From Elsinoe ampelina (lineage: Eukaryota): DNA of 64,000 bases. The stretch is from assembly GCA_010093995.1 (NCBI GenBank), contig ML992502.1:2021925-2085924 (forward strand), read 5' to 3'. The notes under the pieces were generated by a model, which saw only the letters and a program-made list of their open reading frames with translations, was not told the DNA's origin and ran no database searches. This document shows positions 9,525-60,765 of this stretch, piece by piece. A program made the translations under genes and the position numbers. Position 1 is the first letter of the stretch; every line of letters begins with the position of its first letter.

Positions 9525-9643
9525 CTCACCACAGCTCCATCTCTTCACACATCCACCTCACACCTCACCAACACAACCAACAATGCGCCTCCCACCCGCC
9601 ATCATCTCCCACCACGCAATACACCCCCATCAATAACCCCACA

Positions 9644-10303
9644 ATGGTCCGCATTAAACACCGCTACCTCCTGCTCCAGCTCCTCTACCCTTCTGCGCCC
9701 TCCTCCTCCTCCTCCTCCTCCTCTCCCCCCTCCTCCGACCCCCACCAATTCACACTCCACCTCTACGCCCCAACCCCGGACACGCTCACCCCCGCCCTCC
9801 TCGCCCGCCTCATCCGCGACCAAGTCTCCCTCCTCTTCGGGGACCACGGCGCCGGCCTCGTCGCTTCGGGCTTGAAAGTCATGTACCTCTCTGCGCCGAC
9901 GAGTACGGCGATTGTGCGTGTGGGACGGGCGCAGTTTAGGTTGGTGTGGGCTGCTTTGACGATGGTGAGGAGATTGCCCGGGACAGGGGTTGGAGGGGAG
10001 GGGGCTAGGGGAGGGAGGGGGAGGGGGTATGCTGGGCAGAAGGGAGAAGGGGGGCGGGAGGATGGGAGGGAGGTGGTGGTCAGGGTTGTGAGGGTTAGTG
10101 GGACGGTGAGGAAGTGTGAGGAGGAGGTTATCAGGAGGGGGACGGAGGTTGTGAGGAGGGCGAAGAGGGAGGGGAAGGAAGGGGGGTTGGGAGGGTGGGG
10201 GGAGGAGAGGGTGGAAGGCGAAGGGAGGGGGAGGGGGGGAATTGTGGACGATGAGGAGGATGGGGATGAGGATGAGGATGAGGATATGGGGCTGGATTAT
10301 TGA
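9644..10303 (+). CDS. POP5: RNase P/MRP subunit Pop5 (Rpp14/Pop5 family)
   Basis: MVRIKHRYLL N-terminus; LFGDHGAG, VMYLSAPTSTAIVR, VWAALT and VVRVSGTVRKCEEE motifs. Confidence 0.92.
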   Translation: MVRIKHRYLLLQLLYPSAPSSSSSSSSPPSSDPHQFTLHLYAPTPDTLTPALLARLIRDQVSLLFGDHGAGLVASGLKVMYLSAPTSTAIVRVGRAQFRLVWAALTMVRRLPGTGVGGEGARGGRGRGYAGQKGEGGREDGREVVVRVVRVSGTVRKCEEEVIRRGTEVVRRAKREGKEGGLGGWGEERVEGEGRGRGGIVDDEEDGDEDEDEDMGLDY

Positions 10304-10550
10304 GGTTCGAAGGCAGAAAAGGGTGACAGTACGAGAGAAAACAAGGCATAAGGGACGATCAGGATGAGGTTGTAGAGGTGCATTACAGAGGACTTGGAAA
10401 AGCCTGCATGGTCGGCGTATGGGATTTGTATTCGAGATACCCAGTCTGCGATGAGCAGATACGCGCAAGAAATGCGCGAAGCATGAATTCCTTCCTCCAA
10501 CTCCTCGCTGAAAATTACACCAAGCGCGGCCATGATTGACCATCCATATC

Positions 10551-12044: not shown

Positions 12045-13385
12045 ATGCCCTTCGCACAGCTCGTTATAGGGCCGCCTGGATCTGGAAAGTCAACATACTG
12101 CGATGGAGTACAGCAATTCTTCAATGCCATCGAGCGGAAATGCTCGGTAGTGAATCTGGATCCGGCTAATGACCGGACGAGTTATCCTTGTGCGTTGGAT
12201 ATACGAGACTTAGTACCACTGGAAGATGTCATGGAGCAAGAACATCTTGGTCCGAACGGTGGCGTTCTGTATGCACTCGAAGAACTGGAGCACAACTTCG
12301 AGTGGATGGAAGAAGCGCTAGACACCATGAAAGGTGAGGCACTACTGTTGCTGACTGAAACATCGTCTAACAAACAGAAGAAGACTACCTCATCATCGAC
12401 TGTCCCGGCCAAGTCGAGCTTTTCACCCACCACAGCTCCCTGCCCACCATCTTCCACAAGCTCGAAAAGCTCGGCTACCGCGTACGCTGCTTCATCTCCC
12501 CTGCTCTCCTCTCCCTCTCACTAACCCCCTCAGCTCATCATAATCCAACTCCTCGACTCCCACACCCTCACCCGCCCCACGCTCTACATCTCCTCCCTCC
12601 TCCTCTCCCTCCGCTCCATGCTCAACCTCCCCTACCCCTGCATCAACATCCTCTCCAAAATCGATAACCTCTCCACCCTCTCCCCCCTCCCCTTCAACCT
12701 CGACTTCTACACCGAAGTGCAAGACCTGCACTACCTCCTCCCCCACCTCGAAGCCGAACAAGCCGGCATCTCCCTCCCCACCCTCTCCTCCGACCCCACC
12801 GTCGACCCCGCCTCCGTCCTCGAAACCATCCGCGCCCGCGACGGAGGTGACAACAAGTGGACGCGCCTCAACGAGGCCCTGATCCAACTCATCGAAGACT
12901 TCGGCCTCGTCTCCTTCCAGCCTCTCGCGGTGGAGGACAAAAAGTCCATGGCGGCAGTGGTGAGGGCGATCGACCGCGCGTCTGGCTTCGTGTTCGGCGC
13001 GGACGGTAAAGGGGGTCTGTCGAATGAGGAGAGCGTCTTCGCGACGGCGATGAAGGAAGGGTGGGGACAGATGGAGATTCGTGATGTGCAGGAGCGGTGG
13101 ATCGAGAGGAGGGAGGAGCTGGATGAGGTGGAGAGGAAGGAGTGGGAGGAAGAGGCGAGGGAGGCGGGGCAGATGGCGGAGGTGGGGACTGGGGTGGTGA
13201 CGGTGGAGGGGAAGGGGGAGGGGGAGGTGCCGAGTGTGGCGGAGGTGGAGGCGGAGCTGGCGAAGAGGGGAAAGAAGCAAGGGGGATTAGGAAGCGGGGA
13301 TGAGGACGAGGATTTGGAGAAGGCGCAGGAGGAGTTCTTTCGGCACGGTCAAGGTGTGGGAGGGACGAGGGTAATGAGGCGGTAG
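12045..13385 (+). CDS. GPN2: GPN-loop GTPase 2; 3 exons
   Basis: GPPGSGKST, VNLDPAN, LGPNGG, DCPGQVELFTHH and FNLDFYTEVQDL; introns 12334-12377 and 12482-12533. Confidence 0.93.
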
Positions 13386-13448
13386 GGGGAAAGGGGGGTG
13401 ATGATTTGATGAAGTCTATAGACATGATACCCAAATTGCTAAACTATG

Positions 13449-14642
13449 CTAGACGAAACGCAGCACCTGGTGTGGCCCTTCAACCTGCCAGCTCCCTCTT
13501 GTCCTCCTTGTGCTATCCGTATGCGTGGTCATCATGGAATTCCTCGAGCTAGTTACTTGCTCCGGCTCCTTCTGCCTGAGATCATATGGGTCAAAGTCGT
13601 CCAACGCTTCTCCGTCCTCATCATCGCGCATAGCCCTGTTGTGGAAAGCGTTGATACTCCAGACACTGTTCAGCCCGGCATCAATACCGTATTGGCGCGG
13701 CTCTGGTCGTGGATAATACGCTCCATTGGATTTGTCCGGGACGAAGAACGATTGATCGACGCGGGAGATGAGCCACATGTAGACTACAAAGAGCTCGGTG
13801 ACAAAGTTGAAGCAGTAGAAGCTTGCTGTGCTGAGATACCATGGTGGTTCTTGGGCAATTGGACCGTCTGGTCCTGGTGGACCTGGGAGGTAGACAGATG
13901 TGGGTGGTAACCAGCCGGTGCCGGCTCTGAAGGCAGCTCCCAGGGTGAGGATGCATGCAGCGATGATGCATATCCAGATCTTTGTTCTCATCCGTCCTTC
14001 TCCGAACTTGTCTGTCGGGTTGGTGAGGCGTTTCCTTTGAATGCTTGGGAGGAGTCCGATAATGGTGCTGAGTAGCACGACAGGAGCTGGGAGGAAGGCC
14101 ATGACGGCAAAGCAGGTTGAGCCATACAGTTGGATGCTTCGATCGATACGATGGATGTTCGGGTCCAGGGTGAAGAAAGATTGGAGTACAGCTACGACGA
14201 CAGCTATCAGAGTCAGGACGACTATGGCAAAGAGCAGTGCGAAGGCAATCTTGAAGCCTTTGGCCCAGCCGAAAGTAGGATGTTGTGCTCGTATGATTCT
14301 TTGAGCGAAGATAAAGTTGATGCCGAATAGTATAATTGTACCAGCATAGACGAAGACGGTGCTCGCAAGTCCAAGGTTGACCGAGCGAGGGAAGCAGGCC
14401 CACGCTATACGTAACGAGAATGTCCCAATCCGTATCTTGCCAAAGCCGAATAAAGCACCATTGATGACAAATTTGTGCCCGCTCTTCTTGTTCCGTATGA
14501 AGATGGCGAAGCTGGTGACTCCGGCGACTAGGAAGAGGGCCAACAAAGAAGCTGAAACAGGTGCGTCTGGCAAGACGCTAGGTGTTCCACCCAGGAGTTG
14601 AGTATCTGGTGCGTACGGACCTGCACGTCTGGAAAGACCCAT
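13449..14642 (-). CDS. Fungal multi-pass membrane protein (DUF3112-like)
   Basis: GPYAP...LGGTP N-terminus, about 7 hydrophobic helices, FAQRIIRAQHP and FYCFNF motifs; family call from memory. Confidence 0.75.
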   Translation of the reverse strand: MGLSRRAGPYAPDTQLLGGTPSVLPDAPVSASLLALFLVAGVTSFAIFIRNKKSGHKFVINGALFGFGKIRIGTFSLRIAWACFPRSVNLGLASTVFVYAGTIILFGINFIFAQRIIRAQHPTFGWAKGFKIAFALLFAIVVLTLIAVVVAVLQSFFTLDPNIHRIDRSIQLYGSTCFAVMAFLPAPVVLLSTIIGLLPSIQRKRLTNPTDKFGEGRMRTKIWICIIAACILTLGAAFRAGTGWLPPTSVYLPGPPGPDGPIAQEPPWYLSTASFYCFNFVTELFVVYMWLISRVDQSFFVPDKSNGAYYPRPEPRQYGIDAGLNSVWSINAFHNRAMRDDEDGEALDDFDPYDLRQKEPEQVTSSRNSMMTTHTDSTRRTRGSWQVEGPHQVLRFV

Positions 14643-17095: not shown

Positions 17096-19462
17096 ATGGC
17101 CGACGATGGTATGCTTCTCAACCTTGCACCGGACCTCAAGTGGGAAGCGAAACCGGTCTTCAAGGGTGGACGGTGGAAGGACCGCTTGACGGCGAAAAAG
17201 TCGGCAGAATATGGAGCGCAAAAGAGGAGAGAGAGAGCTTCTGGGCAGACTGAGCCATCGGGAGAGGGTGATCAAGCGACCTCCCAGGATGACAGGCCTG
17301 CGAAGAGACAGCGTACCGAGTTTGTCAGTACCAACGGGCAGACACCTCGCTTTACCCCGAGCAATGATAGAAAGACGTCTGGTATACAGCAAAGGACACC
17401 GGCACATTTGATGGGCAAGCCCGGGCATAAAGAAGTCATTTCCTCGCTGTTCACATACAATCCAGAGTCGAAGGCCACCAAGGACGAAGAGCCAGTGGGA
17501 ATTGAGGAAGAGGCGGTCGAGGCCTCCAATGCGCCACTCTCGCCAGAGATGGAGACCTTTACAAATTTAGGACTGTCGAGAAGCGTGGCAGCTCATCTTT
17601 TGAACAAGATGGCCATAAAGGCACCGACTTCTATCCAGCGAAAGGCTGTTGCACAATTACTCAAGGAAGACTCTGACGCTTTCGTGCAAGCCGAGACTGG
17701 ATCTGGAAAGACTCTGGCATATCTTTTGCCTTTAGTGCAACGACTGTTGGACCTTTCGCAGAAGCTGAAAGACTCGAATGGGCAGCGTATGAGCAGGCAT
17801 TCTGGGCTTTTTGCGATCATTCTTGCGCCAACGAGAGAATTGAGCAAGCAGATCTCGACCGTACTCGAATCGCTACTAGGATGCGCACACTGGATCGTTG
17901 CTGGAACTGTCACTGGTGGTGAGAAGAAGAAGTCGGAAAAGGCACGGTTACGGAAAGGCATCAATGTGCTTGTGGCAACACCGGGTCGTCTGGCGGATCA
18001 TCTGAATAATACTGAAGTATTGGACGTCAGCAAGGTGCGGTGGTTAGTCATGGATGAGGGGGACAGACTGATGGAGCTTGGTTTCGAGCAAGATATACAA
18101 AAGATCGTGGCCACATTGAATCTGAGGATGAGGGCTGCGCAACAGGATGACATTAGTCCGCTACTACCGACCAAACGAATGACGGTATTATGCTCGGCTA
18201 CTTTGAAAATGGACGTCCAGAAACTCGGGGAAATAAGCTTGAAGGACGCTGCACATATCGCAGCAGACCAGAAAGAGGAGAATGGCGCCGACAAGGACAC
18301 TGAAGATACATCATTCCAAGCCCCCAGCCAACTGAAGCAATCCTACGCCATAGTCCCCGCCAAACAACGCCTGGTTACCCTTGTCGCCGTCCTCCGCCGC
18401 GCCTTCGCCCGCAAAGGCTCCACGATAAAAGCCATCGTCTTCTTCTCCTGCGCCGACTCAGTCGACTACCACTTCTCCCTCCTCACCCGACCAGATCCCA
18501 CCTCCGACTCCACCTCCGAAACCGCCCCGGCGCCCCCCTCCACCGTCCCCAACCCTCCCACCCCAGCTCCCCTCTCCACCAAACCCTCCATCCCCCAAGG
18601 CCTCCTCCTCCCCCAAACCCTCACCTCCGCCCCGACCCCCACCCTCTCCCCGCCTTCCTCCTCCCCCCTCACCCTCCACCGCCTCCACGGCTCCCTCCCC
18701 CAATCCCTCCGCACCTCCACCCTCTCCAGCTTCTCCAAATCCCCCACCCCCTCCATCCTCTTCTGCACCGACGTCGCCTCCCGCGGCCTCGACCTCCCCC
18801 ACATCGACCTCGTCCTCGAATACGACCCGCCCTTCAGCCGCGACGAACACCTCCACCGCGTAGGCCGCACAGCGCGCGCAGGCCGCGACGGACGGGCGAT
18901 GATTTTCCTCCTCCCCGGTTGCGAGGAGGGGTACGTGCCCATCCTGCGGGAGAGCCGGCGCGAGGGGCTACGGGTGACGGCGCACAGCGCGGAGGAGTTG
19001 TTGCGGCGGGGGTTCGGGCCGACGTCGGGGGTGGTGGATGGGAAGGGAGGGGGGTGGGAGGGCAAGGCGACAGAGTGGCAGTTGGACGTGGAGAGGTGGG
19101 TGCTCGAAGATAATGGGCGGCTGGAGATGGCGAGGCGGGCGTATCAGAGCCATGTGCGGGCGTACGCGACGCATGTGGCGAAGGAGAGGGGGGTTTTTGA
19201 TATTAAGCAGTTGCATTTGGGACATTTGGCCAAGGGGTTTGGACTTAGGGAGAGGCCTGGGGGGATGAAGGTTCCGGGGATGAGGAAGGGGGTGGGGGAG
19301 GTGAAGGGGGAGAGGAAGAGGGCGGGGGCTGGGAAGGGGGTTGGGGACGGGGTGGAGAGGGAGGAGGAGACGAGGGAGGAGATGGATGCGAGGGAGGCGA
19401 GGAAGAGGATGAGGGTTAAGATGAAGAGTTTGGAGGGGGCTGGCGAGTTCAATCTTGGGTAG
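17096..19462 (+). CDS. DBP7: DEAD-box RNA helicase Dbp7
   Basis: MADDGMLLN start; AETGSGKT, PTREL, GGEKKKSEKARLRKG, DEGD, SAT, HRVGRTAR and SHVRAYATH motifs. Confidence 0.95.
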   Translation: MADDGMLLNLAPDLKWEAKPVFKGGRWKDRLTAKKSAEYGAQKRRERASGQTEPSGEGDQATSQDDRPAKRQRTEFVSTNGQTPRFTPSNDRKTSGIQQRTPAHLMGKPGHKEVISSLFTYNPESKATKDEEPVGIEEEAVEASNAPLSPEMETFTNLGLSRSVAAHLLNKMAIKAPTSIQRKAVAQLLKEDSDAFVQAETGSGKTLAYLLPLVQRLLDLSQKLKDSNGQRMSRHSGLFAIILAPTRELSKQISTVLESLLGCAHWIVAGTVTGGEKKKSEKARLRKGINVLVATPGRLADHLNNTEVLDVSKVRWLVMDEGDRLMELGFEQDIQKIVATLNLRMRAAQQDDISPLLPTKRMTVLCSATLKMDVQKLGEISLKDAAHIAADQKEENGADKDTEDTSFQAPSQLKQSYAIVPAKQRLVTLVAVLRRAFARKGSTIKAIVFFSCADSVDYHFSLLTRPDPTSDSTSETAPAPPSTVPNPPTPAPLSTKPSIPQGLLLPQTLTSAPTPTLSPPSSSPLTLHRLHGSLPQSLRTSTLSSFSKSPTPSILFCTDVASRGLDLPHIDLVLEYDPPFSRDEHLHRVGRTARAGRDGRAMIFLLPGCEEGYVPILRESRREGLRVTAHSAEELLRRGFGPTSGVVDGKGGGWEGKATEWQLDVERWVLEDNGRLEMARRAYQSHVRAYATHVAKERGVFDIKQLHLGHLAKGFGLRERPGGMKVPGMRKGVGEVKGERKRAGAGKGVGDGVEREEETREEMDAREARKRMRVKMKSLEGAGEFNLG

Positions 19463-20637
19463 CTAGAATACGTCCCATAGTGAGATGCGGCCGTCTTTGG
19501 AGCCGAGGGCTATCCAGTGTGTTCTTTGGACTTTTCTGGCACGTTGTTGTGCTGCTGTTGGACGCCGGGTGACGTTTGTGGTTGATGTCGCGTCGCTCGC
19601 GGTCTCTTCTGTCTCTGAAGGCAGGATTTTGGCAAAGTCCAGAGCGTAGCAGCCTTCGGTGTGGTACTTGAGCACTGCCAACTCCTTGATATCGTTCATG
19701 TTGCTGGCGCTGTAGACACGTCCCCTCCCATCCCATCCTGCTGTGGCAAAAATCGTTCCATCCGATCTGATGCGCAATGACTGTTGTCCTGAATGACCAG
19801 TCGGGAATCTAGTTGCAGCCCTCTGGTCAAGACTCTCAGCATTGATAGCCTGATCAGCGCCAGAGTAGAAAATTATCGAAGGATTCGACAGCCATACGTC
19901 CACGGAAAGGACTGGTTGTTTCGGGTCTGGCATGCCAGCTGCATCGCATCTGCGGATCCTCCGCCACGTTCGATCTTCTTGCTCGCTGTACACAGCGACC
20001 CATCCAGCCTCGTGTCCGGCTATAATTGTAAGACGATCCTGGTGGTACAGGAGCGACAGTGCCATGATCATGCCGGTCTTGTCCTCAGGTACGGGTGGGA
20101 CGGTGCCGAGAAGAGTCTCAAAGGGTAGCGACCAGAGGATGATAGCTCCATCGCTGACGCTGGGAACGGCGATGAGGAGATTGTCAGACCCTCGTGCAGG
20201 CACAGATGCGAAAGAGCAGAAGTTGAGTGTGTGGACATCCAGACTGTGCAGGAGGCGTGGTTTCGGATGGTTGGCTTTTTCTTGGACGGAGTATGCTTGT
20301 GAGAGAGTGTGCTCGTCTTGTTCGCGGACAAGCCACACGTGCAACTTACTGTCTCTCCCATGCCTGCGTCACAAATCAGTACCTACCCTTTGCCTCATCA
20401 GGTATGTACACACGTGATGATTTTGTCGTCTCCCCACGAGCCCAGACCGAGGATCACAGCAGCGTGGGGTCTCCATGCGGCCGCGGGTCTCCTGGTGATC
20501 ATGTCCCAGAGAATGGTCCATCCCTCGGCATCTCCAGTGATCAGGCGGGAATTATCTCGGAGGAAGTGCACCGCATGTATTGGCGCCGAGTGACCTCGAA
20601 AGACATAGCTTGGTTGTAGCGGAGCTGTTGATGACAT
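19463..20637 (-). CDS. ASA1: ASTRA-complex WD40 protein Asa1; 2 exons
   Basis: PSYVFRGH start; HGRDSKLHVW after intron 20364-20413; GHSGQQSLRIRSDG, TAGWD and GSKDGRISLWDVF. Confidence 0.88.
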
Positions 20638-24333: not shown

Positions 24334-24701
24334 TGGAGTGATGGCTCCCTTTTTGCTTGTAATTCTCGATGTTGCTATTTGGCATGGCGTCCAGGGGGAG
24401 CACAAAAGACGGACAAAAGGCCATGTCCGTGAGGGAAAAGTGCAATGTCACGGCCGCTTAGGGCAAAGGGGGGGGAGATGTGCGATGTAATAATGAGGAC
24501 ACGACATGATCTGAGGGGCCACGTTGCGATGTAGCATTTTAAGCAGAGAATCGAAGAGTAGCGAATGAATTCGAGCCGAGCAGCATCCGGCTTTGCATGA
24601 CCATCTTCTCCCCACCTCTCCCCTCAAGCTCCACCTCTTCTCCCCTCCCTTCTCCCTCCACCTCTTCTCCCTTCCCCTCTTCCCTCCCCCCGGCCTCTGA
24701 C

Positions 24702-26911
24702 TCAAACCTCCACCAACCCCCCCATCATCAACCCCTCCACCACCTCCCCCTCCCCCACCTCCTCCCTCAACGGCATCCTCAACAACGCATTCGCCCCCTT
24801 GAAGCTTCCAATCCTACTACTCCTCTGGCCCCCCGTCGTCCTCCCCACCACCACCCCGTCCCTCCCCACCCCGACAATCGCCCTAACGTACTCCTCCCTC
24901 TTCGCATCCGCCCTGACCATCTCCCCCAACCTGACCTTGACCCTGGGCAAACCCCTGGGTTCCCGCCCCATCATGCCATGCAGCGCGGGCAGGACGAAAA
25001 GATGGTACGTCACGACCGCGCTGGCGGGGTTGCCGGGCAAAGCGAAGACGACTTTTGTCTTTGTCTCGCCCGAGTTGGTCTTGACGGGGACGGTGGCGAA
25101 GGTGGTGGGTTTCCCGGGCTTCATGCTCACGCGCCCGAAGTGGATCGTGCCGCCCAGTGGGCCGAGGAGGGTGGCTTTGAGGAGGTCTTTTTCGCCCATG
25201 GAGACGCCGCCGGTGGTGATCACCACGTCGGACTGGCGGAGTGCGTTGCGCAGGGAGGTCTCCAGGCCGGTGGGGGTGTCTGGGGCGATGCCGGCGTCGG
25301 AGCAGGAGAAGCCGGTGGAGGCGATGGCGGCGAGTAGGGAGGGCCGGTTGGTGTCCCGTACTTGACCGAGGAGTAAGGGCCCAGGGGAGGTGTGCGGGAT
25401 GAGTTCGTCGCCTGTGGAGAGGACGGAGATGGTCGGCCGGTGGTAGATGGATAGGGAAGTGAGGCCTGTGCTGGCGAGGAGGGCGAATTCGCCGCCGAGG
25501 GCCGAGATGCCTTCGCCTTTTTTGAGGAGGAGGGATCCGGAGGGGACGTCGGAGCCGATTTCGCGGACGTTTTCGCCGGGAGTCACGTCAGAGGTGAGGA
25601 TTTCGATGGTGGCTTCTTCGGTGCCGTCCGGGGTGGTGGAGACGAGGCGGGTGTCTTCTACCATAACGACGGAAGTGGCGCCGGGAGGCAGAGGGGCGCC
25701 GGTGGTGATGCGGGCGACTTCGTTAAGGCTTAGGGTCTTGGGCTTGGTGGAAGATAGCTGGGCGTGGCTGATTTGGGTGACGGGGTAGATGCCGGCTGTG
25801 TTGGTCTTCGCGTCCGAAGGGATGGAGACGGCATATCCATCGACGATGGAGGCTCGGAAGGCTGGGACCGCAGACGGAGCATATGCGTCTTCGGCAAGTA
25901 CTGATGGTAAGATGGAGTTGTCCAGAGAGACCGTCTCTGCAACTGGTCGAGGGACGTGTTCAGCTATCAGTGACAAGGCCTCGTCTACCGATATCATCGG
26001 GTAAGGAGATGAGCGGGCGCGCTGTGTCGGATTTGCCGATGGGTCGGGGGTAGGTCGATCAGCAGGGTTCGTGTGTGGCTTTGGTCCATGATGACCATGA
26101 CCATGACCGTGGCTGTGTCCATGATGGTGATGAGTATGCGAGTGCGATGCAGCGCCAGACGTGACTCCTGCGTCTTGTTCAAGCTTCTTGACACCACCCG
26201 CATGCAAAGTGCGAGAGTCAGCTCCGGCAGCTTGTTGGCATGCGTGAGCGAGCAGCTTGATGACAGCTTCAAGGTTCTCCTTCGCCCCTTTCGGTGACCC
26301 GGGTAAGGTCATTATGAGTGATTTGTTCCGAACGCCAGCTACTGGTCTGGCCATGACAGCGACTGAAAGAATCAGACATGCTCTTCATGAGTGTTCTCAT
26401 GACTTACAGGGTGTGACTGCCAGCGAAGATGCGAGCATGCCATGACTATCAAACAATGAGTCGTTGTCGTCGCTCCTAGCCTAGTGGCAACTCACACCAG
26501 TCCTGGAGCGTGCTTGTGCAGCAATGGGGATACAGCCTGTCCGAGATATCAGCATACTTTTTAAGATGCCAAGAGGAGTAGATGAGACTGCTAGAGCGCG
26601 AATCGAAATGGGCTAGGAGTGGTGCAATGGCGACCTACCTCGGGTGTGACATCCTTGCCTGTGAAGCCTGTACCACCGCTGGTGACAATGAGATTGACAT
26701 AGTCCTCGCTGTCAGTCCATCTTGTTACAGATCGTTGAATGGCAAGTATATCGTCCGGCACGATAGACACGTCGGCCACGTCCCATGCAATTGTCTCTGA
26801 TGAAGATTTGTTGAATACCTCTCGTAGGGCAGGTTCACACTTGTCGGTCGAGGGATCTCGAGATGCTGTTTCTGAGACAATGAGCACAGCTGCTCTCAAT
26901 TTCCCGCTCAT
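24702..26911 (-). CDS. cnxE: Molybdenum-cofactor biosynthesis protein, MogA+MoeA fusion (gephyrin-like CnxE); 4 exons
   Basis: G domain TSGGTGF..KDVTPEA and TLPGSPKG; His-rich linker; E domain RASIVDGYA, STGDEL, TTGGVSMG, KPGKP and LPGNP; introns 26537-26638, 26446-26495, 26363-26407. Confidence 0.93.
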
Positions 26912-28807: not shown

Positions 28808-29308
28808 AAGTGCTCTATGGGCCCAACTCAATCGAAGAAACCTTGTGGCACTCTCTTTTCGAATGTCCACAACCACAAAAGTCGCTACTTATGTCCCCTC
28901 GAGGACAAAGCTAAAAAGGCTCCCAATCACAAGCAAACGAAGCTGAGATGGCAAGTCGTGAAGCCGGAGCATTTCCGGCATCCCAAGTCAGACAAGTCTG
29001 AACATGTTTCGAGATAGCGGTGCTTAGGATGCGAGAGACAGTCAAGTGTTGCAGATATCGATGTTCGTTTGGCAGGAATACAGCACTGCGGACGGCGTTC
29101 ATGGGCTTTTTGATACCCGCATAGCATGGGGAGCACTCTTTGAGAACGAATGAAACTACTTTGACCACACCCGCTTGCTGCACGTGCAGACCTGCGGCTT
29201 TGTCTCTGACATGTGAACGTGCGGCTCCGCATCGCGAAGCAAGCTCCAGCTCCGCAATCCTGTCATGCGACACTCCATCTACTCTTCCACACAACACACG
29301 CCAATTCC

Positions 29309-30053: not shown

Positions 30054-30280
30054 GAGGAGTCAAGCGCTTGCGTGTTGAGGAAGGCTGTATGATACGCTCG
30101 GCACAGGGACACGAGGCATGAACGCGATGGAGGATAAGTGGAATGATGTAAGATTAATTCAGAGTTGCACATCAAGCATAGCGAGGCATAATTCGTCCTT
30201 TTTACCAAATCCGGCGCCTGTTTCTATTCTACAATATCCATATACTAATTGCACTGATGTGCTCATCGTTCATCCCAGAA

Positions 30281-31210: not shown

Positions 31211-31280
31211 TCCTCCCTTCCATCCCTCCATCCCTTCCATCCCTTCATCCCTCCATCCCTCCATCCCTTCATCCCTCCCC
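31211..31280 (+). repeat. Degenerate (CATCCCTY)n minisatellite upstream of the GNAT gene
   Basis: About 7-8 tandem CATCCCTC/CATCCCTT units. Confidence 0.8.
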
Positions 31281-31310
31281 ATACCACCTCCCCTCTCTAT
31301 ACCTACCACA

Positions 31311-44884: not shown

Positions 44885-45112
44885 TGTTGCATGGTTGTCC
44901 GGGTGTGGTTTGTGGGTTGGAGGTTGTGATGGTGGAGGGGTGGGAGTGTTGTGGGTGAAGCGCGTGGTGGGGGGAGTGGTTTTCACACGTGAAGGATGGC
45001 AAACAAAACACGGGGGAACTTTTAAAACTATGACTTGCAGGAGGTGATTGGTGAACGTTGGGTATATTTTATGAGGATCACTCGTCTGCTAGACTTACAC
45101 GACCACGCGCGT

Positions 45113-46523
45113 TTATATCGACCAGCCGCTCTGCTTCTTGCTCGTTTGCACCCGTGGAGTGGATGATGACTTCTCTTCCGAGAAGCCCAGAGGCTCGAAA
45201 GCGAATTGTGCCTGCTGGCCTGGCCTCCAAGTCGTAGCCGCTTCATCCTCTTGGAGTTCAATTTCGCCGTCAGCCGGTGCTTCATCCGGCACAGCATCGT
45301 CCTCCACTTCCTCTTGGTCTTCCTCCTGGCCTTCCTCTTGATCTTCTTCGCCTTCCTCGCTTTCCTCGCCCTCGTTCTGGTTGCCACTCTCCTCTTCTGT
45401 GCCGTCCCCACGGCCGACAGTCTCAATATACCGATCGAGATCCTTTGCCATCTTCTTGTTGAAGCCAGTAGCCTCCACTTCCACATCCAATCTCGTCGTC
45501 TTGTCAGATTCCTTGATCGCATCTGCAAAGAACGGACCAGGCTCTGACGTCTCGAACTTGAATCGCCGGAGAAAGAAGCGTTTGATGCACGCCACATCTC
45601 TGTCAAAGTAGAACTTTGCATTTTGATGCGTGATGGACAGCATTTGCGGAAAGTCGATGAGGATAGGTACAAGTTTGACCTCTCCATTTGCTGATGGGAC
45701 CTCCTTGATCAGTAGGTTGAATTCGTTGTAGTCTCCGTGGATCAGGCCTACCCTCGCAAGCTTGACAATTATCTCCATGAGCTCAGCGTATAACGATGCG
45801 GGATCTGGAACACTGTCGATTTGCCGTAAAGGAAATGCATCAATAAATTCCATGACGATTGTGTGGCGACTCTGTCCAAGCGGTTCCGGCACCGGGAATC
45901 CTTCACGCCTCAGGGCTTGCATGAACGCGTATTCCTTCATGGCTGCTAATCGACTGAGGTACATCCAGGATCCCGTTGAGCGATTCCGGAGGTAATCTCT
46001 GTTGGCCTTGACCGTCCTGAAAGATATTCTGCCTAGCCTATGCACTTTGAGCACACATTGTCGGCCTGATTCGGCTGCCACAACATAGATGTCAGACTCC
46101 TTGCCGACGCCAATTTGATTGCCCAGACTGTAGACGGTGGAACTTTTCCGATGCGAGTTGAGTGCTAGATAGTCCAGTCCGCCATAAGTGAGTCTGTAGC
46201 CATCATCTGCCCAACTGATCAGCAAAGTGCTTCCATAAAATACCCTTGAGCAACGGACATTTGGCATTCTTGACTTTTGCAATCAGATTGACTTTGGCAA
46301 GAGCTGAAATACTCTTATGCACACCACTTCCGCCTCGGAGCCCAGCGAGCTGGGTGATCAATGTAGTTGGGACGACCTCATGGTTCCTACTTCCTGTCTC
46401 AACCTATCGACATCTTATCAGCGTCAGTCGAGATCTTGACGAAGAATTCATTTTACTTACAGCTGTGAGCACTCTCCAGTCTTCAGAGGTAAGGTACCGA
46501 ATCGCTTTTGGATTCAGCTTCAT
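45113..46523 (-). CDS. RIO2: Atypical protein kinase Rio2; 3 exons
   Basis: MKLNPKAIRYL, GSRNHEVVP, DGYRLTYGGLDYLAL, GVGKESD, IHGDYNEFN and IDFPQM; introns 46404-46460 and 46207-46258. Confidence 0.96.
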
Positions 46524-49953: not shown

Positions 49954-50967
49954 TCAGCCCTCCAAGACAAATTGCAGAAACGCCTTCGAAGCCACAATGC
50001 CATCATGCTTATTGCCGACCCGGGACATGGCATCGTTGTAGATGTCATCCTTGAGCACCCCGAGATCATGCCGTACGTCCAAGATCGCAGATGTGATGAA
50101 GTTGTTGAACTCGGGATGTCCCTGCACCGTGATCGCTTTGCCCTTCATGTACCATCCCTGCGTCGAGCATTTGGGTGAATGCGCCAATGGCTCGACCCCC
50201 TCAGGGTACTCGTACACGATGTCCTGGTGCATCTGGTGGATGTACTGTATAATGTCAGCCTTCTGCCTTGTCCATCCGCGCGCATCTCTCTCTTCCCAGC
50301 CAACCCATCCCGACTCAGCCCTTCTTCTGTGCCCTTCCCTCCTCTTCAATCCCCTCGACTGACCAGAAACGACGGTATAGTAGGAAAGGGACTCACCATC
50401 TCCCCCCTCCCCAGCCCAAAAACCTCCTCCCCTTTCTTCGTAAGCTGCATAGGCGTCACACTAACCTCCCACCCCTTATCGCTCCTCGCCACCTTCGCCC
50501 CCATCGCGCGACCTATAATCTGATGCCCAAAACATATCCCGATCAACTTAACGCGGGACTGCTCATACAGAATCTTCATAGTGAAGTCCACAAGGCGCAA
50601 GATCCACGGATCAGAGTCGAACGAATTATGCTCTGCCACAGTCAACACCTATCACCCACCACCAAGCCCCCAAACCCAACACCAAGTGTTACTGCCGGTG
50701 CGGCTGTGTGGGAAAGAAAAAAAAAGACTCACTACTCCCCGTCAACAGCACAGCGTCCACGGACTCGAGATCCGGGTATTCCTCTTTGCCCACGACGTCC
50801 CATTTCGTGATCTCCAAGTGTACTTCTTTGCCCGTCTCTTGCTTGAGGAGGTCCGCGCCCGAGGTGAGCATGGTTTCGAAGATGGCGCCGTAGGGGCCGA
50901 GTCGGGCTGCGACGGCGGGGACGGGGGTGTCGCATTCTAGGACGGCGATGCGGAGGGGGGTGGCCAT
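49954..50967 (-). CDS. Class I glutamine amidotransferase-like protein; 3 exons
   Basis: LRIAVLECDTP, LLTGSK, GICFGHQ (catalytic Cys), HQD and QGHPEF (His-Glu); introns 50633-50732 and 50245-50396. Confidence 0.9.
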
Positions 50968-51257
50968 TTTCGGGGTGGGGGAAGAGGGTGAGGATGGGTG
51001 GTGAGGAGGTGGAGTGTAGATGTGGGAGTGGTGGTGGAGGGGCAGAGGTGGGTGGTGGGGTGTGGGGATATCTCGGGGATATGTCGATGTGGTGAACCCT
51101 GGAAGATTAGTTGAGGAGGACGATGTTGCATTGATATTCGAGTGGTTCATCATGTTTTCATTCAAAGCCTGTAAAAGACTCGGGTATCTTGGTCTAAATG
51201 TACATCTCCCTTGATGGTTGCTGACCCACAACCGACCTGAGCCTGGCCATGCCCTGT

Positions 51258-54893: not shown

Positions 54894-57125
54894 TGTTCCT
54901 GTAAAGCTTCCAAAGTCACGAAGCCGTGGGTGGCCTTTTCTGTCTCCTCTGCGAACACTTGAGTTCAGCACTACACTTCTCCTATTGTACAACGAATTTC
55001 CTTTGTTCCATTGATCAATCATTGATCATCACGCTGCGAGCCTGGCAGGTCAAGCTGGGAGCAAAAAAAGTGGCAATGCATAGCGAGGAAGGAAGGACAT
55101 GTCCGGATGGGCATTTAAGGGAGTCATGGTCTGACCCTTTCCTTCATCTGCTTCTCTACCTTTTCGGTCCCACAGTTTAACAAGACATTATCGTGATATT
55201 CGTGCCTGCCTTTCTCTTACTTATTACCATGTTATCTCTACCTGTCGTGATTGATGGTTCGTAAGCCACAATCGCGATACAAGTTGTCCATGACTGATCT
55301 TCTTTGTGCCATGTATTACACCCACACCACAGCGGCTCCAGGCGTTCCTCTGATCTTCCAAGCACGTGCGGCTCTTGTGATTCGTCCTACGCCCTACTCT
55401 GCGCGACAAGCTTGTGGGGCCAAGGCGTCTTGCAACTCCTGCCACAAGACAACCACATTCGCCTGAAAGCTCGATCTTGCCTACTTAAGCACGTGCACGA
55501 ATGCGGACTTTTGCGGACCTTACATGTCTGAAAATGTCTTGCTTGGTTCAATTGACAGACACATGACAGCTGAGACGACCTGAAGACATACACTTTTTTT
55601 TAGTATGCCCTGGAATAGAGCTACTGACGCAACGCTGCATGAACAGCAGCTGCCGACTCGATGAACCAACGATCTTGTTTGAATGAACTCGAAGTTTAGC
55701 TTCTTCGCGGGAGGTAGGTATGCGGACCTTGACCATGTCCGGAGTGTCATCTGCGAACATGGGTAGCTCTTAGCATCATGAGCGAGCAGTTTGATGTAAT
55801 GACGATGATCAAGCTAAATCGGCGCATCGACATTGTGATGCGATGGTCATTCAGCACATTTCAATAACGATGACTTGTGATGTGCATATACATTGGGAAA
55901 GGTACTGGCAAACGCCGCAATGGATATCCACAAGATGGTGTTCTCAATATGAGAGATGGACACAGTCGCAAATGCAGCATGACGGAGTCCTTCCCCTCTC
56001 GTTTCCAGTGAAGTTGCAGCCAGCAAATCCTGGCCAAGTCTGGGCTAGCTGGTAGTTCGGTAGCGGGATCGTCAGCCAATGTATTCGATTGCCCAGCATG
56101 GCAGATGAAGCATGTGGTGTGGTCCGCGGTTGCTAATCGGACATTTTCTCACGAATCGATCTGCCATGCACTTTGCGTAGGAACCAAGCAAGTAGAAGTC
56201 GCTGCACTTTTTTGTCACGCACCTCAGTTCACGAACCCTGCGCCAGATGCGACTGGATGCCGGCCAGACTGCTGGCTGGCATCAAGGGATCGTCGATAAG
56301 GGACTGGTTTGATGGTGGCTTGTAAATCGGAGGAGCGAAGACGTGGTTTGTGTTGTTCAAAGGCACTACTCCATTGGTTCGCCGGCTTGCAGAACACTAC
56401 TGCACTCTTCGCAGGATACAATCTCCTCTTCCATGCCTCGCAGGTGTCGAATAAACAGAAGAATCACCGCGTCTGGCACTCCGGACAGGTTCCCCTCGCG
56501 AGGACCTTCCGTGCACACCCTGTCGATCGGGGGGGGGGGAGCAAAGCAGCCGCACTAGGGCGCTCTTCTGGTTCACACGCTTGAACGCCTGGGGTTAGTC
56601 TCAATCCTTAGTGTTTGGCTACGCGGGGAAGATCTGCAGTAGCGCTGCATTAGCCCTGGTTTAGCAGCTTGTCAGTCGCAGCCGTTATCCGTGCTCCGCT
56701 GTGCTTTGCGGTGCTTTCCAATTGCACCTCCAATCCACGCCATGATAGCCCGTCTTTGTTGAGAGGACGTCTTCTTGTCCTCCTCACTGTTTCTCACACG
56801 ACCACTCGACCTGTTGTGTGACCTGGATACTCTCCAATTCTTCGAGTCGATCGTTCTCACACGCTTTTCGTATCTGCTTCTCGCGTCCTGCCCTTCCATA
56901 ACCGCCGCCACGATTATAGCATGGCTGGTCAGTAACGTCTGGCTGTTTGAACATTTCCCTACCCGCATCGCGTGCCACGACCTGACGACGGCATACGATA
57001 CCTGGACGAGATACGAATACAGAGATCAATCCATTGCTCACGACAGTCTGTTTCCCCAAACTCAATTGCTGGTGCTCAACTCGAATTCATCGAGTCTCGA
57101 CTCCGCCAGCGCTTAACGATCAACC

Positions 57126-59600
57126 ATGAGCACCATCATGGCTACGGTCGTGACCCGGCCAGCTGCTCTCACAAAGTCGACCTCATCACCCTCAACTTCA
57201 CTATCACTCAATACCTCAATCCGCGGCACTCCGGCTGCTGTTCCCAACAAACATCTCCCCACTTGCTCACCCGGACCCCGCCCCGCTGGTCACCGGCTGT
57301 CCTCTCCAGCGACACCCACTTCACCAGCACCCGTTCTCGAAACATCTTCGCTTCTGTATCCGCCAGAGAAATACTCTAAGCTTTCTTCACGACCTATTGT
57401 ATATTCACTCGATTCCGCCCAGCTCCACCATGCTCTCGACCATGCAGCCTCGCAACCCCTCCCAGATCCCAAGCTCGTCTTTCCATGGCTACACGGTCTC
57501 CACCCCGATAACTCCCTCCAACTCGCCTTCTTCATCGCCCGCAAAAAAGCCCTCCGTCGTATCCCCCGCTGCATCCGCTCAGTCACAATCGTCAAAGCTG
57601 GCGGCGACCTGAGCTGCTCAAAGATAAGAGGGGCAATCACTCCGGAAGAGCTACTGCTATCGGGAAGAATGAGCGAGGAAACCCCACAATTCATAGATGC
57701 GGATCCGAGAGATGGCTTCAGCGTTAGGAACTTCCAGATCCAGGCTGCGAAGTTGGCTACTGTCAGTGATATCGTGGTGTACGGGGATGATAATACGAGC
57801 AAAGAAGAGGTGAGGAGGTTGGCGGAGAGGATAAGCCGGGCACAGAAGGCTTGGAGGGAGAAGGATAGAGAGCAGGGAGTGGAGAGGCCGGTGTTCAGCA
57901 CATTTGTCATGACAGGTGGGTATCTTCAAAATGGACAGGAGGGACGTAGGCTGACTTGACCAGATTCATTCGCAAAGCTGGAGCAAGATCATAATGAGAT
58001 TGTGGCCATTGGGAGCAATAATTGCTTGACGGGCAATGTCATTGATTTCTGTAAGTTTGACTGGACATCAGCTCAAGATTCATGCTGATCACACTCCAGT
58101 CCACCAAGAAAGAATTGAGATGTCGACCATGTCAGCGGCATCAGAGATCGCACACAATGTCTGGTTGGGCCCAACGCCAGATACAGAACTGAACGAAACA
58201 GCGACTTCGGCAGCCGAGGATGACACTGCACTTCCTTACGACATTATGATTGAATGCAATGAGATTGCTCAGGTACCCAACCGAAACGCTTTCAAAGTGC
58301 TTGAAAGCCTTCTGGCTTGCCCTGATCAGACAAGATCAGCCATCCCTCAGCTAGAGTTCCCAGGCTCTGGATCTATCATGCCGCCTACTTGGTCCCAACT
58401 AGAAGCCGATGGACTCATGTCGACCATCAGCTGGATCTACTCGCAAGCGAACACACCTTGTGCCGATACCGTTTCCGGTGCCGAAAGAGATTCTGAGATG
58501 CGCAAGCGAAAAGACTCCAAGGTTTCCTTCACGCCACCTCTTGACTCGGATGGCGACAGCATCATGCTCGCCCCAGAAACGTCATCAGGCCGGAAATTTC
58601 TGCTTCACTGCTCAGATGGCTACACCGAAACCACACTCCTGGCCGTCGCATACTACATGTACTCTCACTGCGTCCCTCTCCACCAAGCTTACATCGAGCT
58701 CCACAAGATCTACAAGCGTAACTTCTTCGCCTACCCGACCGACATTGCTCTCTTGACCGCTATTCAGCCACGCATCCTCTCTTCCTCACCGCTTGCGAAG
58801 AACGGTCTGTGCCTCGAACGTCTCGCCCCACAAACACCAAAATGGATGGACAAAGTCGACGGATCTCTTCCTAGCAGAGTGACCGACTACATGTACCTAG
58901 GCAACCTTAATCACGCCAACAACCCCGGTCTACTCCGCGAGCTCGGTATCGGACAAGTACTGAGCGTAGGTGAATCCCTTGACTGGAACGAGAGAGATAC
59001 CCAGGCGTTCTGCAACGGTGAGGAGTTCGAATGGGATAGAGAAAGCAAGGCCGGCCGGTGGATGTTTGTCGGTGGGGTGCAAGACAATGGCGTCGATCCT
59101 TTGACTGAGGAGTTTGCGAAGTGTCTCGAGTTCATTCGTACGTCCCCCCCTTTCTTGATCTGAAGGGACAATACTGACCATATCCAGGCAAAGGCCGAGA
59201 CCGAGGCGTTGCTACCCTTGTCCACTGCCGCGTCGGTGTCAGCAGGTCAGCGACCATCTGCATCGCTGAAGTGATGAACGAATACGGATTGTCGTTTCCG
59301 CGAGCATAGTACGTCACTCTCCCTATCTCCCTTTCCCCATCCCCCCCCCCTCCCCTACTCTTCCATTTCCCTCCTCCCAATCCCCTCAATGTGATTGATC
59401 TGCTAACACCCCAAAGCTGCTTCGTCCGCGCCCGCCGCCTCAACGTAATCATCCAGCCCCATCTCCGCTTCAGCTACGAGCTGCTCAAGTACGAAGAGCA
59501 CCAGGCTGTCAAGCGGGGCAGGACGTTCAGGAGGGAACTTGAATGGGCTACTATCGCGAGGGAGATTGCGGCTATGAATAGGCCTTATTCGAGGCAGTAG
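57126..59600 (+). CDS. PPS1: Dual-specificity protein phosphatase Pps1; 5 exons
   Basis: VFPWLHGLHP, FSVRNFQIQ, HCSDGYTET, GSLPSR and catalytic VHCRVGVSRSA; introns 57916-57963, 58051-58099, 59138-59187, 59309-59416. Confidence 0.92.
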
Positions 59601-60765
59601 GGATGTCTTGGGAGAAAGGGAGGTGAGGTGAGGGCCAAGAAAGAGGGGGAGCGGAATGGAAGTGGTGGACGGGAGGGAGAAGGAGGAACATACGAAAGAC
59701 AAAAGGAGCAATCTGGATCTCACCCAGGTGGACTCGTGGAGGGCGAGGCAACTGCAGTGCACCGTCAGCATCCGGCATTGGATCTGCGATTCTCACTCCT
59801 GGCCGCACTCACTCTCCTGGCAACGACCCTCTTGACAGTCAGCTGTATCTCTGAACACCCCCGCCTACTCCCGCTGGCAACGCCAGACTCCAACACCACC
59901 TCCCTGTTAGATGTACTGCACGGAAACGAACAACGAAAACGCAACCAAAAACGAAACGAAACGACGACAAACGCCTTCGGACTCGCAGTCCGGACCACGA
60001 TGGAATCGCACACTTGATGACGGAATGAAATGAGAGCATGGATATGCATGGCGTGTACTTGATTCGGAACGTTTCTTTGGTTCGACATGGATATGGAAAT
60101 CGGGGCATGACTTTCTGGGATCTGATACGGTAGGATAGCCGGGATGATAACCCAGCGAAGGAGAGGGTTAGGAATAGGGTAGTGGTATTCATCTATCTAC
60201 CGTGTCGTCTCGCTGCTCTATCTGCTCCCCCTGTGGTGGGATCCCTCTCGTCGGGGCAACGTGTGCGGTCTGTTCTCTTCCTCCATGGTGTCCTCCGAGT
60301 GAAGTTTGATGCACCGGGTCTGGCGACGCGCGGGAGTGGTCAACTGTGTCGAAACATTTGGGAAGGGAAAGGCCGACAATCCAGGTACGTTCTACGGGGC
60401 ATCTCCTATGTTTCACCGGATACAAGGGCAGGGACGTGAGCAGGAGAAGAGTCCTTTTGATTGTCTTTGATCAATACAGACGGAGAAGTGAAAAGGAGCA
60501 ACTCATCCTTCGCTACCGGGCGTCTCGAAACTCGATGTAGCATTCCCCCAAATCTGCTCAATATCTATGCTTCATCGGCCCGAGCGCCTTCAAGCCAGCG
60601 CGGCGAATGTAGATCTGCTGTATATCTATGCTTCATATTCCATGCTTCGTAAATCTTCTTAGTCGAGCCATCCGCCACGATGCCTCCCATCCAAAACCTT
60701 CTGGTAGTCAGCAGCGAGTGAGCATCGGTTCTCGGTGATGACTAGATCCTTGTCACCAAAGCGCA

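Follow-up and report, generated by a model that had tools for sequence, protein, structure and literature searches.

Ten gene-anchored C-then-G skew islands in Elsinoe ampelina: probably an extreme, block-like form of fungal transcription-unit skew

Why should a fungal chromosome switch repeatedly, and always in the same order, from a C-rich to a G-rich strand? The question is raised by the window analysed here, a stretch of 64,000 nucleotides from Elsinoe ampelina (GenBank assembly GCA_010093995.1, contig ML992502.1, positions 2,021,925 to 2,085,924 of the forward strand), in which a first-pass annotation had noticed about ten islands with a C-rich arm followed by a G-rich one, and had proposed a strand-asymmetric process centred on the switch between them. 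An objective block scan (200-bp windows, |GC skew| > 0.4, merged blocks of at least 300 bp) finds 20 long blocks between positions 9401 and 64000, 10 C-rich and 10 G-rich, which form 10 adjacent C-to-G pairs and no G-to-C pair; when the sequence is shuffled in chunks of 1, 50, 200 or 500 bp, at least 10 pairs of the former kind with none of the latter are reached in 0/200 shuffles for every chunk size. With the switch point defined as the maximum of cumulative C-G (Table 1), all ten positions of the first-pass annotation lie within 90 bp of the computed ones, and the fixed polarity that it described holds within islands. G-to-C junctions do exist between islands and genes; examples are the step from a G block at 30645-30921 to the C block that begins at 31022, and that from 45125 to 45257.

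Table 1. Skew islands and the genes that carry them (window coordinates; strand is that of the gene)
Feature	Position	Strand	Switch	Description
Island 1	9402..10481	+	about 9897	spans whole Pop5/Rpp14-family gene and both flanks
Island 1 gene	CDS 9644-10303	+		Pfam PF01900, E 1.9e-27
Island 2	12330..13488	+	about 12926	3' two thirds of GPN-loop GTPase-type gene (ATP_bind_1)
Island 2 gene	exons about 12046-12333, 12378-12482, 12535-13385	+		
Island 3	18285..19593	+	about 18916	final 1.15 kb of Dbp7-type DEAD-box helicase gene
Island 3 gene	CDS 17096-19462	+		Dbp7-type, intronless; conserved helicase motifs inside island
Island 4	24498..25921	-	about 24977	3' part of MoeA/gephyrin-type gene, C then G in sense
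Island 4 gene	stop at 24702	-		island runs about 120 bp past stop
Island 5	29217..30196	+	about 29661	whole small membrane-protein gene
Island 5 gene	about 29300-30053	+		intron in C arm; EamA match weak, under Pfam cut-off
Island 6	31022..31964	+	about 31510	whole GNAT acetyltransferase gene and about 290 bp upstream
Island 6 gene	CDS about 31311-32018	+		GNAT acetyltransferase
Island 7	43845..45125	-	about 44594	5' end of Snf7-domain gene
Island 7 gene	CDS 44887-43454	-		Snf7-domain; sense C arm takes in about 200 bp before ATG
Island 8	50227..51228	-	about 50838	5' end of unnamed gene, ATG about 50967
Island 9 (weaker)	57072..58024	+	about 57590	first exon of long dual-specificity-phosphatase-like gene
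Gene of islands 9 and 10	57126 to about 59600	+		dual-specificity-phosphatase-like
Island 10 (small, weak)	59210..59796	+	about 59477	last exon and 3' flank of phosphatase-like gene
Island 10 exon	about 59310-59600	+		last exon of phosphatase-like gene

The islands measure 0.59-1.42 kb and are built alike: arms of fairly constant length, about 450-500 bp, reach a composition of up to C 0.52 or G 0.50 at a GC content of 0.6-0.7, with a skew that forms a plateau at about +/-0.6 overall, and at about +/-0.8 at silent sites, and stops at sharp outer edges. Towards the centre the skew is weaker: it averages 0.34-0.46 in the +/-100 bp around the switch and about 0.6 farther out. The centre is also where the GC content peaks, and the islands, with a peak of 0.65, are the GC-richest parts of the window. 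Islands 9 and 10 are weaker than the others, with C at about 0.40 and G at about 0.36.

The skew does not vanish at synonymous sites; fourfold-degenerate positions are more skewed than the arms as a whole, with C at 0.71 and G at 0.10 in the C arms (770 sites) and G at 0.69 and C at 0.10 in the G arms (578 sites; eight islands for both arms together), against A.26, C.28, G.24 and T.22 in the background genes (2206 sites). Island 3, for example, goes from -0.85 to +0.75 at these sites, and fourfold GC in islands is about 0.8. At two-fold sites the C arms favour C where the alternative is T (0.89) and A where it is G (0.71), with the mirror image in the G arms; the bias is thus strand-asymmetric and not a plain preference for GC. 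Codon positions 1 and 2 are also skewed within the arms, and amino-acid usage is shifted, towards P/S/T/L/H in C arms and G/R/E/K/V in G arms. A context model trained on the background genes to predict fourfold skew from amino-acid context gives only -0.23 to +0.03, where +/-0.56-0.86 is observed, and across 104 background windows the skew at positions 1 and 2 is no predictor of that at third positions (r = 0.05).

The same bias is found outside coding sequence. In nine non-coding stretches in or beside the arms, only one of them an intron, the skew ranges from -0.61 to -0.84 where the arm is C-rich and from +0.24 to +0.70 where it is G-rich. The flanks of the island 1 gene show -0.84 upstream (9530-9643) and +0.36 downstream (10304-10480); the stretch upstream of the gene in island 6 (31022-31310) shows -0.61 and that at 59601-59796 in island 10 +0.39; beyond the stop codon in island 4 (24580-24701), C makes up 0.55 of the + strand; and intron 2 of the island 2 gene (12483-12534), inside the C arm, has C 0.52 and G 0.08. 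The first-pass statement that the skew continues through introns and UTRs therefore stands for UTRs and flanks, and for introns on a single intron. Its judgement that codon demand alone is insufficient is borne out by the fourfold sites, which are the most skewed, by the UTRs and the one intron, and by the failure of the context model. What the islands record is a regional, strand-asymmetric, GC-enriching substitution bias that is at work in UTRs and in one intron as well as at silent sites.

The position of this bias follows the genes, as judged from predicted models that combine ORFs and Pfam matches and were built for this analysis. Coding sequence contains all ten switches, which lie at distances of 120-550 bp from a CDS end; in all ten islands the sense strand is C-rich and then G-rich, seven times on + genes and three times on - genes. 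The C arm starts 40-290 bp upstream of the ATG in six of the ten, and in seven the G arm ends close to the stop codon, from 30 bp short of it to 180 bp past it. Placement at 5' ends, at 3' ends or over whole genes, as already described in the first-pass annotation, recurs among the ten gene-anchored islands. The tendency extends to the window at large: in 23 of 25 gene models the last 300 bp have a higher sense skew than the first 300 bp (Wilcoxon p = 1.5e-6), with mean values of -0.17 for the 150 bp that precede the gene, -0.14 for its first 300 bp and +0.21 for its last 300 bp. Extreme skew is confined to about 9 of the 25 genes, and the 5' arms of islands reach a sense skew of -0.6 to -0.9. 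The skew is anchored to gene ends, and the islands are probably an extreme, block-like form of the known fungal transcription-unit GC skew, in which the sense strand is C-rich at the 5' end and G-rich at the 3' end. Because C-then-G reads identically on both strands, a rule set by gene orientation yields a fixed polarity genome-wide.

A simple gradient is not what these genes show, however, since in seven of the ten islands one arm lies in the gene interior, away from the presumed transcript ends. The C arm of the Dbp7-type gene lies 550-1150 bp from the stop codon, and the 1.2 kb at its 5' end is mildly G-biased at silent sites, an arrangement that a simple 5'-C/3'-G gradient does not predict. 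Several of the other genes have details of their own. The Snf7-domain gene of island 7 is putatively Chm7-like, and that of island 8 looks like a putative glutamine amidotransferase, judged by eye only; island 8 lies directly downstream of a PP2A-type phosphatase gene ending at 51258. In the phosphatase-like gene the G arm of island 9 stops at the first intron, and among the top matches of the ORF six proteins of 544-786 aa (e.g. 662, 695, 625, 644 and 786) align N-terminally, with interspersed matches of about 260-295 aa aligning over their full length.

The process named first in the first-pass annotation, an origin of replication fixed at each switch from which G-rich leading strands diverge, would produce the same upward jump. 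Origins carry a C-rich left and a G-rich right side, as all ten islands do, and the gene-orientation rule expects likewise. Origins are, however, spaced tens of kb apart and mostly intergenic, whereas ten in 50 kb are far too many and every switch lies in coding sequence. The skew moreover ends abruptly at about +/-500 bp, short of replicon scale, the switch positions follow gene ends, and no origin-like motif common to the ten switch centres was found beyond a GC/CpG-rich composition. With spacing, arm length and location all misfitting, we regard fixed origins as highly improbable.

Asymmetry linked to recombination, also raised at the outset, is unlikely as well, but has more in its favour. 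In one version a hotspot sits at the switch, and mismatch-biased repair of heteroduplex would let C accumulate on the 3'-tail strand on both sides, the premise being that C-containing mismatches on the invading strand, C/C above all, are poorly repaired. The other version would place the hotspots at the edges of the islands, in intergenic DNA free of nucleosomes, where damage to the resected strand and translesion synthesis would leave a G-rich tail. Islands recur about once every 5 kb, a density of the same order as that of hotspots in yeast, and the enrichment of GC at fourfold sites is compatible with biased gene conversion. Fungal hotspots are usually reported from intergenic nucleosome-free regions, however, and for the first version all ten centres lie in coding sequence, with no shared motif found beyond their GC/CpG-rich composition. 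The arm length, the weak central +/-100 bp and the central GC peak do resemble the anatomy of human hotspots, as described by Hinch et al. (2023); the polarity expected from the human mutational asymmetry in that study is the reverse, since the left flank should lose C and the left arm is C-rich. A break hotspot centred on the switch is not supported by these observations. The second version has the human polarity, and suits all arms next to intergenic DNA as well as the three islands that span a whole gene. It leaves the interior arms of seven of the ten islands unaccounted for, and across these intergenic regions, on the side away from the island, most of the sequence has no skew (to the right of island 3, for instance, it is -0.06). 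For a break-centred process of either kind, arm edges at gene ends are unexpected.

The arms could alternatively be maintained for a function, as R-loop or G4 elements, as a means of tuning Pol II speed through CTP limitation, or as the two sides of a C:G fold-back in the mRNA. All 29 canonical G4 motifs of the window fall within arms (16 in right arms, on the + strand, and 13 in left arms, on the - strand), G arms finish near stop codons in seven of ten islands, and several island genes have a convergent neighbour; the G arm would in the R-loop/G4 version pause or terminate sense transcription, and the C arm antisense read-through. Three islands, however, occupy the 5' ends of their genes, and a terminator placed there would do harm. 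The fold-back, an alternative of the first-pass annotation, is not supported: the predicted mRNA hairpin of island 1, at -388 kcal/mol, is no stabler than in shuffles of the same composition (-377 +/- 10 kcal/mol, z = -1.1), and inverted repeats between arms amount to low-complexity matches of 71-88%. Holding about 70% of silent sites at one base while altering conserved proteins would require very strong selection per site, and the skewed columns have no lowered substitution rate in related fungi (0.036 and 0.024 against 0.022 per site, from small counts). Even with the CTP hypothesis having been proposed as adaptive by McLean & Tirosh (2011), we consider a selected function improbable.

Under the preferred reading, as a form of transcription-unit skew, the bias would arise where mutation or repair differs between the DNA strands by phase or direction of transcription. 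A candidate route is the bypass of abasic sites, which in yeast inserts C opposite the lesion and would on an exposed strand turn any base to G. The bias may further be self-reinforcing, since G-runs favour R-loops and G4 structures. In a stronger form of this idea, to which we give a small share of our belief, the islands would be discrete domains of 'runaway skew', each about 1 kb long: the 5'-C/3'-G bias universal in fungi would be the seed, amplified in the Elsinoe lineage by a feedback in which G-runs promote R-loops, G4s or an open hotspot, one strand is exposed, and more bases on that strand turn to G. Such a feedback would couple C and G arms of equal length, and would overwrite about 70% of silent sites and some protein sequence. 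If true, such domains would parallel runaway GC-biased gene conversion, but in a strand-asymmetric form. The proposed strand difference in mutation or repair tied to transcription corresponds to the 'mutational pressure' hypothesis of McLean & Tirosh (2011).

Other fungi share the pattern. In 80 metagenome fungal loci (907 kb) there are 44 C-to-G against 20 G-to-C pairs, several of the latter being junctions between tandem islands. In 50 of these loci the mean fourfold skew of Dbp7 is -0.40 over residues 511-606 and +0.25 over residues 701-788, the last bin being higher in 84%, and pooling 231 other ORFs gives a fourfold skew that moves from -0.25 over the first 50 codons to +0.09 over the last 50. 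The skew that the amino acids of Dbp7 themselves force is -0.34 in the C arm and +0.47 in the G arm in this window; the corresponding values are -0.20 to -0.27 and +0.35 for three further species of Elsinoe or Sphaceloma, against -0.16 to +0.07 and +0.18 to +0.33 for four outgroups; 26 derived replacements in the C arm sum to a net -24.7, the G arm to +11.7 and the upstream body to -3.3. By these sequence comparisons, the amino-acid footprint is derived and strongest in the window's own lineage. In sequence this fungal window comes nearest to Elsinoe batatas. Parsimony on three related metagenome sequences gives too few substitutions in skewed columns (28 and 19) to build on, and in this small set the C-rich columns show 12 losses of C against 6 gains.

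A lineage so close to saturation, in which silent sites go from 71% C to 69% G inside one exon, with sharp edges, would allow the process behind the skew to be sought with far greater sensitivity than yeasts offer. Blocks of this kind also bias analyses based on codon usage, dN/dS or composition, give rise to spurious long ORFs on both strands, and force low-complexity P/S/T or G/R/E segments into conserved proteins.

In mammals, GC-skewed CpG-island promoters and gene 3' ends reportedly form R-loops, and in plants and some fungi the C-over-G skew of transcription start sites is described within about +/-100 bp of the start. With the mammalian regions (Ginno et al. 2012 and 2013), the islands share a GC/CpG-rich centre, C then G skew, G-rich 3' ends and a density of G-runs and G4 motifs; the mammalian coding strand is G-rich just past the start site, however, where it is C-rich here, and the centres here lie within coding sequence instead of promoters. 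The C>G skew around start sites of plants and some fungi (Fujimori et al., BMC Genomics 2005) resembles the C-rich sense 5' ends of the islands, six of which have C arms beginning upstream of the ATG, but the arms here, about 500 bp long, reach far into the coding sequence and give way to a G-rich arm. At human meiotic break hotspots (Hinch et al., Science 2023), which are PRDM9-defined and bear no relation to gene ends, the resected 3' tails lose C and A, and the flanks measure about 2 kb; common to both systems are a two-sided footprint, a weak asymmetry in the central +/-100 bp and strong flanks, and the polarity is opposite if the break is placed at the switch.

A search of the literature on GC skew in Elsinoe, and in Dothideomycetes among the matches listed, found no nuclear-gene study. 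The closest known system is that of McLean & Tirosh (BMC Genomics 2011), who report that fungal genes are C-biased at the 5' and G-biased at the 3' end of the coding strand, at fourfold sites and into promoters and 3' UTRs, with shifts in amino-acid usage and a strength that varies between species and between genes; all of these features, the varying strength included, are found again here. Compared with that description, a modest gradient is replaced by separate, sharp-edged arms, about 500 bp long, whose skew is about +/-0.8 at silent sites; a negative correlation of skew with GC content becomes GC enrichment; fourfold sites and positions 1 and 2, there alike in magnitude, differ, the former being far more skewed; many arms lie in gene interiors; and the host is a filamentous Dothideomycete. 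Fungal gene-end skew was thus already known, and what differs here is its magnitude, the sharp arms of about 500 bp, the GC enrichment and the interior arms; the departure from the published gradient and GC correlation we take to be a matter of degree and form, and not a separate kind of skew.

Ten sites in the window, located by a composition profile and two scripted scans, carry a strongly C-rich stretch (the C arm) followed directly by a strongly G-rich one (the G arm). These islands have a GC content of 0.6-0.7, against ~0.52 in the surrounding sequence, and their switch points (see table) each lie within 90 bp of the values in the first-pass annotation. When blocks are built from 200-bp windows with |skew| > 0.4, merged to at least 300 bp and paired with a partner at most 200 bp away, the window yields ten long C-rich and ten long G-rich blocks, all of which pair as C→G and none as G→C; the fixed polarity claimed from the sequence thus holds within islands. 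None of 200 shuffles per chunk size (1, 50, 200 or 500 bp; positions 9401-64000) reaches at least 10 C→G pairs with 0 G→C pairs. In the mean profile of the ten islands, the skew stays level near -0.6 between 400 and 150 bp before the switch and near +0.6 between 100 and 300 bp after it, is lower (0.34-0.46) within ±100 bp, and is back at zero by ~±500 bp, with a GC maximum of 0.65 at the centre; the outer edges of individual islands are sharp. A search for motifs at the switch points, as named in the first-pass annotation, finds nothing common to the 10 centres beyond composition-driven GC/CpG-rich words such as CGCCCG (8/10).

Positions of the skew islands and associated features (window coordinates unless a locus is named)
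Feature	Position	Strand	Remark
Island 1	9897		switch point
Island 2	12926		switch point
Island 3	18916		switch point; Dbp7
Island 4	24977		switch point
Island 5	29661		switch point
Island 6	31510		switch point
Island 7	44594		switch point
Island 8	50838		switch point
Island 9	57590		switch point
Island 10	59477		switch point
Dbp7	17096-19462	+	DEAD-box helicase
Dbp7 stop codon	19460-19462	+	
WD40 ORF stop codon	19463-19465	-	convergent gene
Phosphatase-like ORF	57126-57956		
G→C junction	30645-30921 then 31022		
G→C junction	45125 then 45257		
Weaker sense-G blocks	41406-41673; 10539-10738; 45257-45529		lone blocks at gene 3' ends
AT-rich block	2800-9400		GC ~0.28
Assembly gap	4877-5590		N run, 714 bases
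Pop5 tail	9960-10300		G/E/R/K-rich
Small membrane protein tail	29850-30050		G/E/R/K-rich
GNAT segment	31600-31720		G/E/R/K-rich, internal
G4 motifs (examples)	9980-10239; 18547-18651; 31215-31349		in island arms
Tandem islands in Dbp7	10150-11167; 11327-12433		metagenome locus L047
Additional island	~18178-18760		L046-L050 group

The skew does not vanish at silent sites, and the earlier claim that codon demand alone is insufficient is borne out there, in non-coding stretches and in one intron. In the eight islands with a usable reading frame, fourfold sites of the C arms hold C at 0.71 and G at 0.10 (770 sites) and those of the G arms hold G at 0.69 and C at 0.10 (578 sites), against a background of A.26, C.28, G.24 and T.22 (2206 sites in ten coding stretches of the window). 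At two-fold sites the bias is one of strand rather than a plain GC preference: C arms favour C over T (0.89) but A over G (0.71), whereas G arms favour G over A (0.90) and T over C (0.61). Nine non-coding stretches in or beside the arms share the skew direction of their arm, the intron among them with C 0.52 and G 0.08. Amino-acid or neighbour context was considered as a cause and ruled out: when third-position choice is modelled from the neighbouring bases, with background genes as the training set, the fourfold skew expected in the arms is -0.23 to +0.03, where ±0.56-0.86 is observed, and in the background the skew of codon positions 1 and 2 does not predict that of the third (r = 0.05, 104 windows). 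The process operates regionally, on the DNA itself.

The genes that Pfam identifies in the window are ordinary fungal ones, including a Zn2Cys6 transcription factor; the protein of the DEAD-box helicase gene Dbp7 is 94% identical to that of Elsinoe batatas and 73-79% identical to those of E. fawcettii, E. australis and Sphaceloma murrayae. In our approximate gene models, predicted from ORFs, Pfam hits and visible introns, all ten switches fall within predicted coding sequence, with a CDS end 120-550 bp away. Three islands span whole genes (a Pop5-family gene, a small membrane protein, a GNAT acetyltransferase), four lie at 3' ends (a GPN-type GTPase, Dbp7, MoeA, the last exon of a phosphatase-like gene) and three at 5' ends (a Snf7-domain gene, one unnamed gene, the first exon of the phosphatase-like gene), in agreement with the first-pass placement; given the three at 5' ends, anchoring at 3' ends only was dropped. 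For the phosphatase-like ORF, six top hits of 544-786 aa align by their N-terminus, and hits of ~260-295 aa, interspersed among them, align full-length, so that its reading as the N-terminus of a longer protein has partial support from these alignments.

Seven islands lie on genes of the + strand and three on genes of the - strand, and on the coding strand C precedes G in 10/10. The G arm ends from 30 bp before to 180 bp after the stop codon in seven of the ten, the C arm starts 40-290 bp upstream of the ATG in six, and in 23 of the 25 gene models of the window the final 300 bp have a higher sense skew than the opening 300 bp (p = 1.5e-6). Since reverse complementation leaves a C-then-G order unchanged, a rule of gene orientation by itself yields the fixed polarity; it also predicts G→C junctions at intergenic spacers, and such junctions are present. 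Weaker lone sense-G blocks occur at the 3' ends of other genes (an RSE1/SF3b-type gene, a WD40 gene and a RIO2 kinase gene), and a continuum of genes from weak to extreme skew is suggested. The stop codons of Dbp7 and a convergent WD40 gene ORF adjoin, so that each 3' UTR must overlap the coding sequence of the other gene. Island 1 begins directly at the border of an AT-rich block, which contains an assembly gap and has RIP-like dinucleotide indices (TpA/ApT 1.9-2.0 against 0.53 in the rest of the window; (CpA+TpG)/(ApC+GpT) 0.29-0.35 against 1.32).

We consider it fairly probable that the islands are an extreme, block-like form of a known skew anchored to transcription units; at the molecular level, transcription would be coupled to a bias of mutation or repair that is strand-asymmetric and enriches GC. 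This leaves unexplained the interior arms of seven of the ten islands, the sharp edges and fairly constant arm length of ~500 bp, the GC enrichment, and why extreme skew is confined to ~9 of 25 genes. Breaks at the island edges fit in part: they match the polarity reported at human break hotspots, where the 3' tail loses C and A, and they match the whole-gene islands, but they do not account for the interior arms. Breaks at the switch, as first proposed, would by the same reported asymmetry leave the opposite polarity, and could produce the observed one only through a conversion bias dependent on mismatch type, of the kind that mismatch-repair hierarchies would underlie. Replication origins at the switches, also proposed from the sequence, are made unlikely by the density of the islands, the genic position of the switches and the ±500 bp extent of the skew.

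Runs of at least four G or C follow the arms closely, with 105 C-runs and 3 G-runs in left arms (in + strand order) and 104 G-runs and 1 C-run in right arms. The window has 29 canonical G4 motifs, every one of them within an island arm: right arms carry 16, on the + strand, and left arms 13, on the - strand. A putative feedback or function of R-loops or G4s thus stays under consideration, though this concentration may simply follow from composition. Specific fold-back of C and G arms in the mRNA, another alternative of the first-pass annotation, is not supported and was rejected together with a true inverted repeat: z is -1.1 against 20 shuffles, and inverted repeats between arms are low-complexity ones only.

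Codon positions 1 and 2 are skewed in the arms as well. In an alignment of Dbp7 with eight orthologues, scored by the codon G-minus-C content that each amino acid imposes, the forced skew of C and G arm is -0.34 and +0.47 in the window, -0.32 and +0.47 in E. batatas, -0.20 to -0.27 and ~+0.35 in three other Elsinoe/Sphaceloma species, and -0.16 to +0.07 and +0.18 to +0.33 in four outgroups; in the upstream body it is near zero in every sequence aligned. At sites of agreement among at least three of the four outgroups, derived replacements of the window lineage shift the score by a net -24.7 in the C arm (26 replacements), +11.7 in the G arm (29) and -3.3 in the body (28). The Dbp7 footprint is thus derived and has grown in the window lineage, in the same place as in its relatives. 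G arms encode low-complexity G/E/R/K-rich segments, as in the Pop5, small membrane and GNAT proteins, and C arms P/S/T-rich ones; the bias may also, putatively, promote slippage insertions.

Among 80 fungal loci (907 kb of metagenome contigs, found with the Dbp7 alignment; Dbp7 47-59% identical to that of the window), the same block rule gives 44 C→G pairs against 20 G→C pairs, several of the latter being junctions of two tandem C→G islands. This is the case within Dbp7 of loci L046-L050, where each gene half carries one island; an additional island occurs in this group. Because amino-acid composition confounds third-position skew, the all-codon measure of Dbp7 orthologues and ORFs, the latter also confounded by the Dbp7 ORFs themselves, was set aside, and the analysis was redone at fourfold sites only, with Dbp7 removed from the other-ORF set. 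Dbp7 then has a mean fourfold skew of -0.40 over residues 511-606 and +0.25 over residues 701-788, the latter being higher in 84% (50 loci, some near-identical pairs included); pooling 231 other ORFs, each at least 200 aa long, gives -0.25 for the first 50 codons and +0.09 for the last 50. In 79 of the 80 loci Dbp7 lacks introns yet has an interior boundary, which is therefore not set by introns; introns were accordingly rejected as island boundaries. Polarised substitutions at skewed columns of L046, L047 and L048 (~97.5% identical) are small counts, of 28 and 19 events.

Literature on GC skew retrieved with Elsinoe or with the title of McLean & Tirosh (2011) does not describe the extreme form, nor do the Dothideomycetes GC-skew matches listed, all mitogenome or genome reports. 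McLean & Tirosh (2011) report, for almost all fungi examined, a coding strand biased to C at 5' ends and to G at 3' ends, a bias that affects fourfold sites, reaches promoters and 3' UTRs and shifts amino-acid usage, and whose cause they leave undecided between mutational regimes linked to Pol II phases and an adaptive CTP-limitation idea. The islands differ from that pattern in their GC content: they are GC-enriched, whereas the published skew has the opposite correlation.
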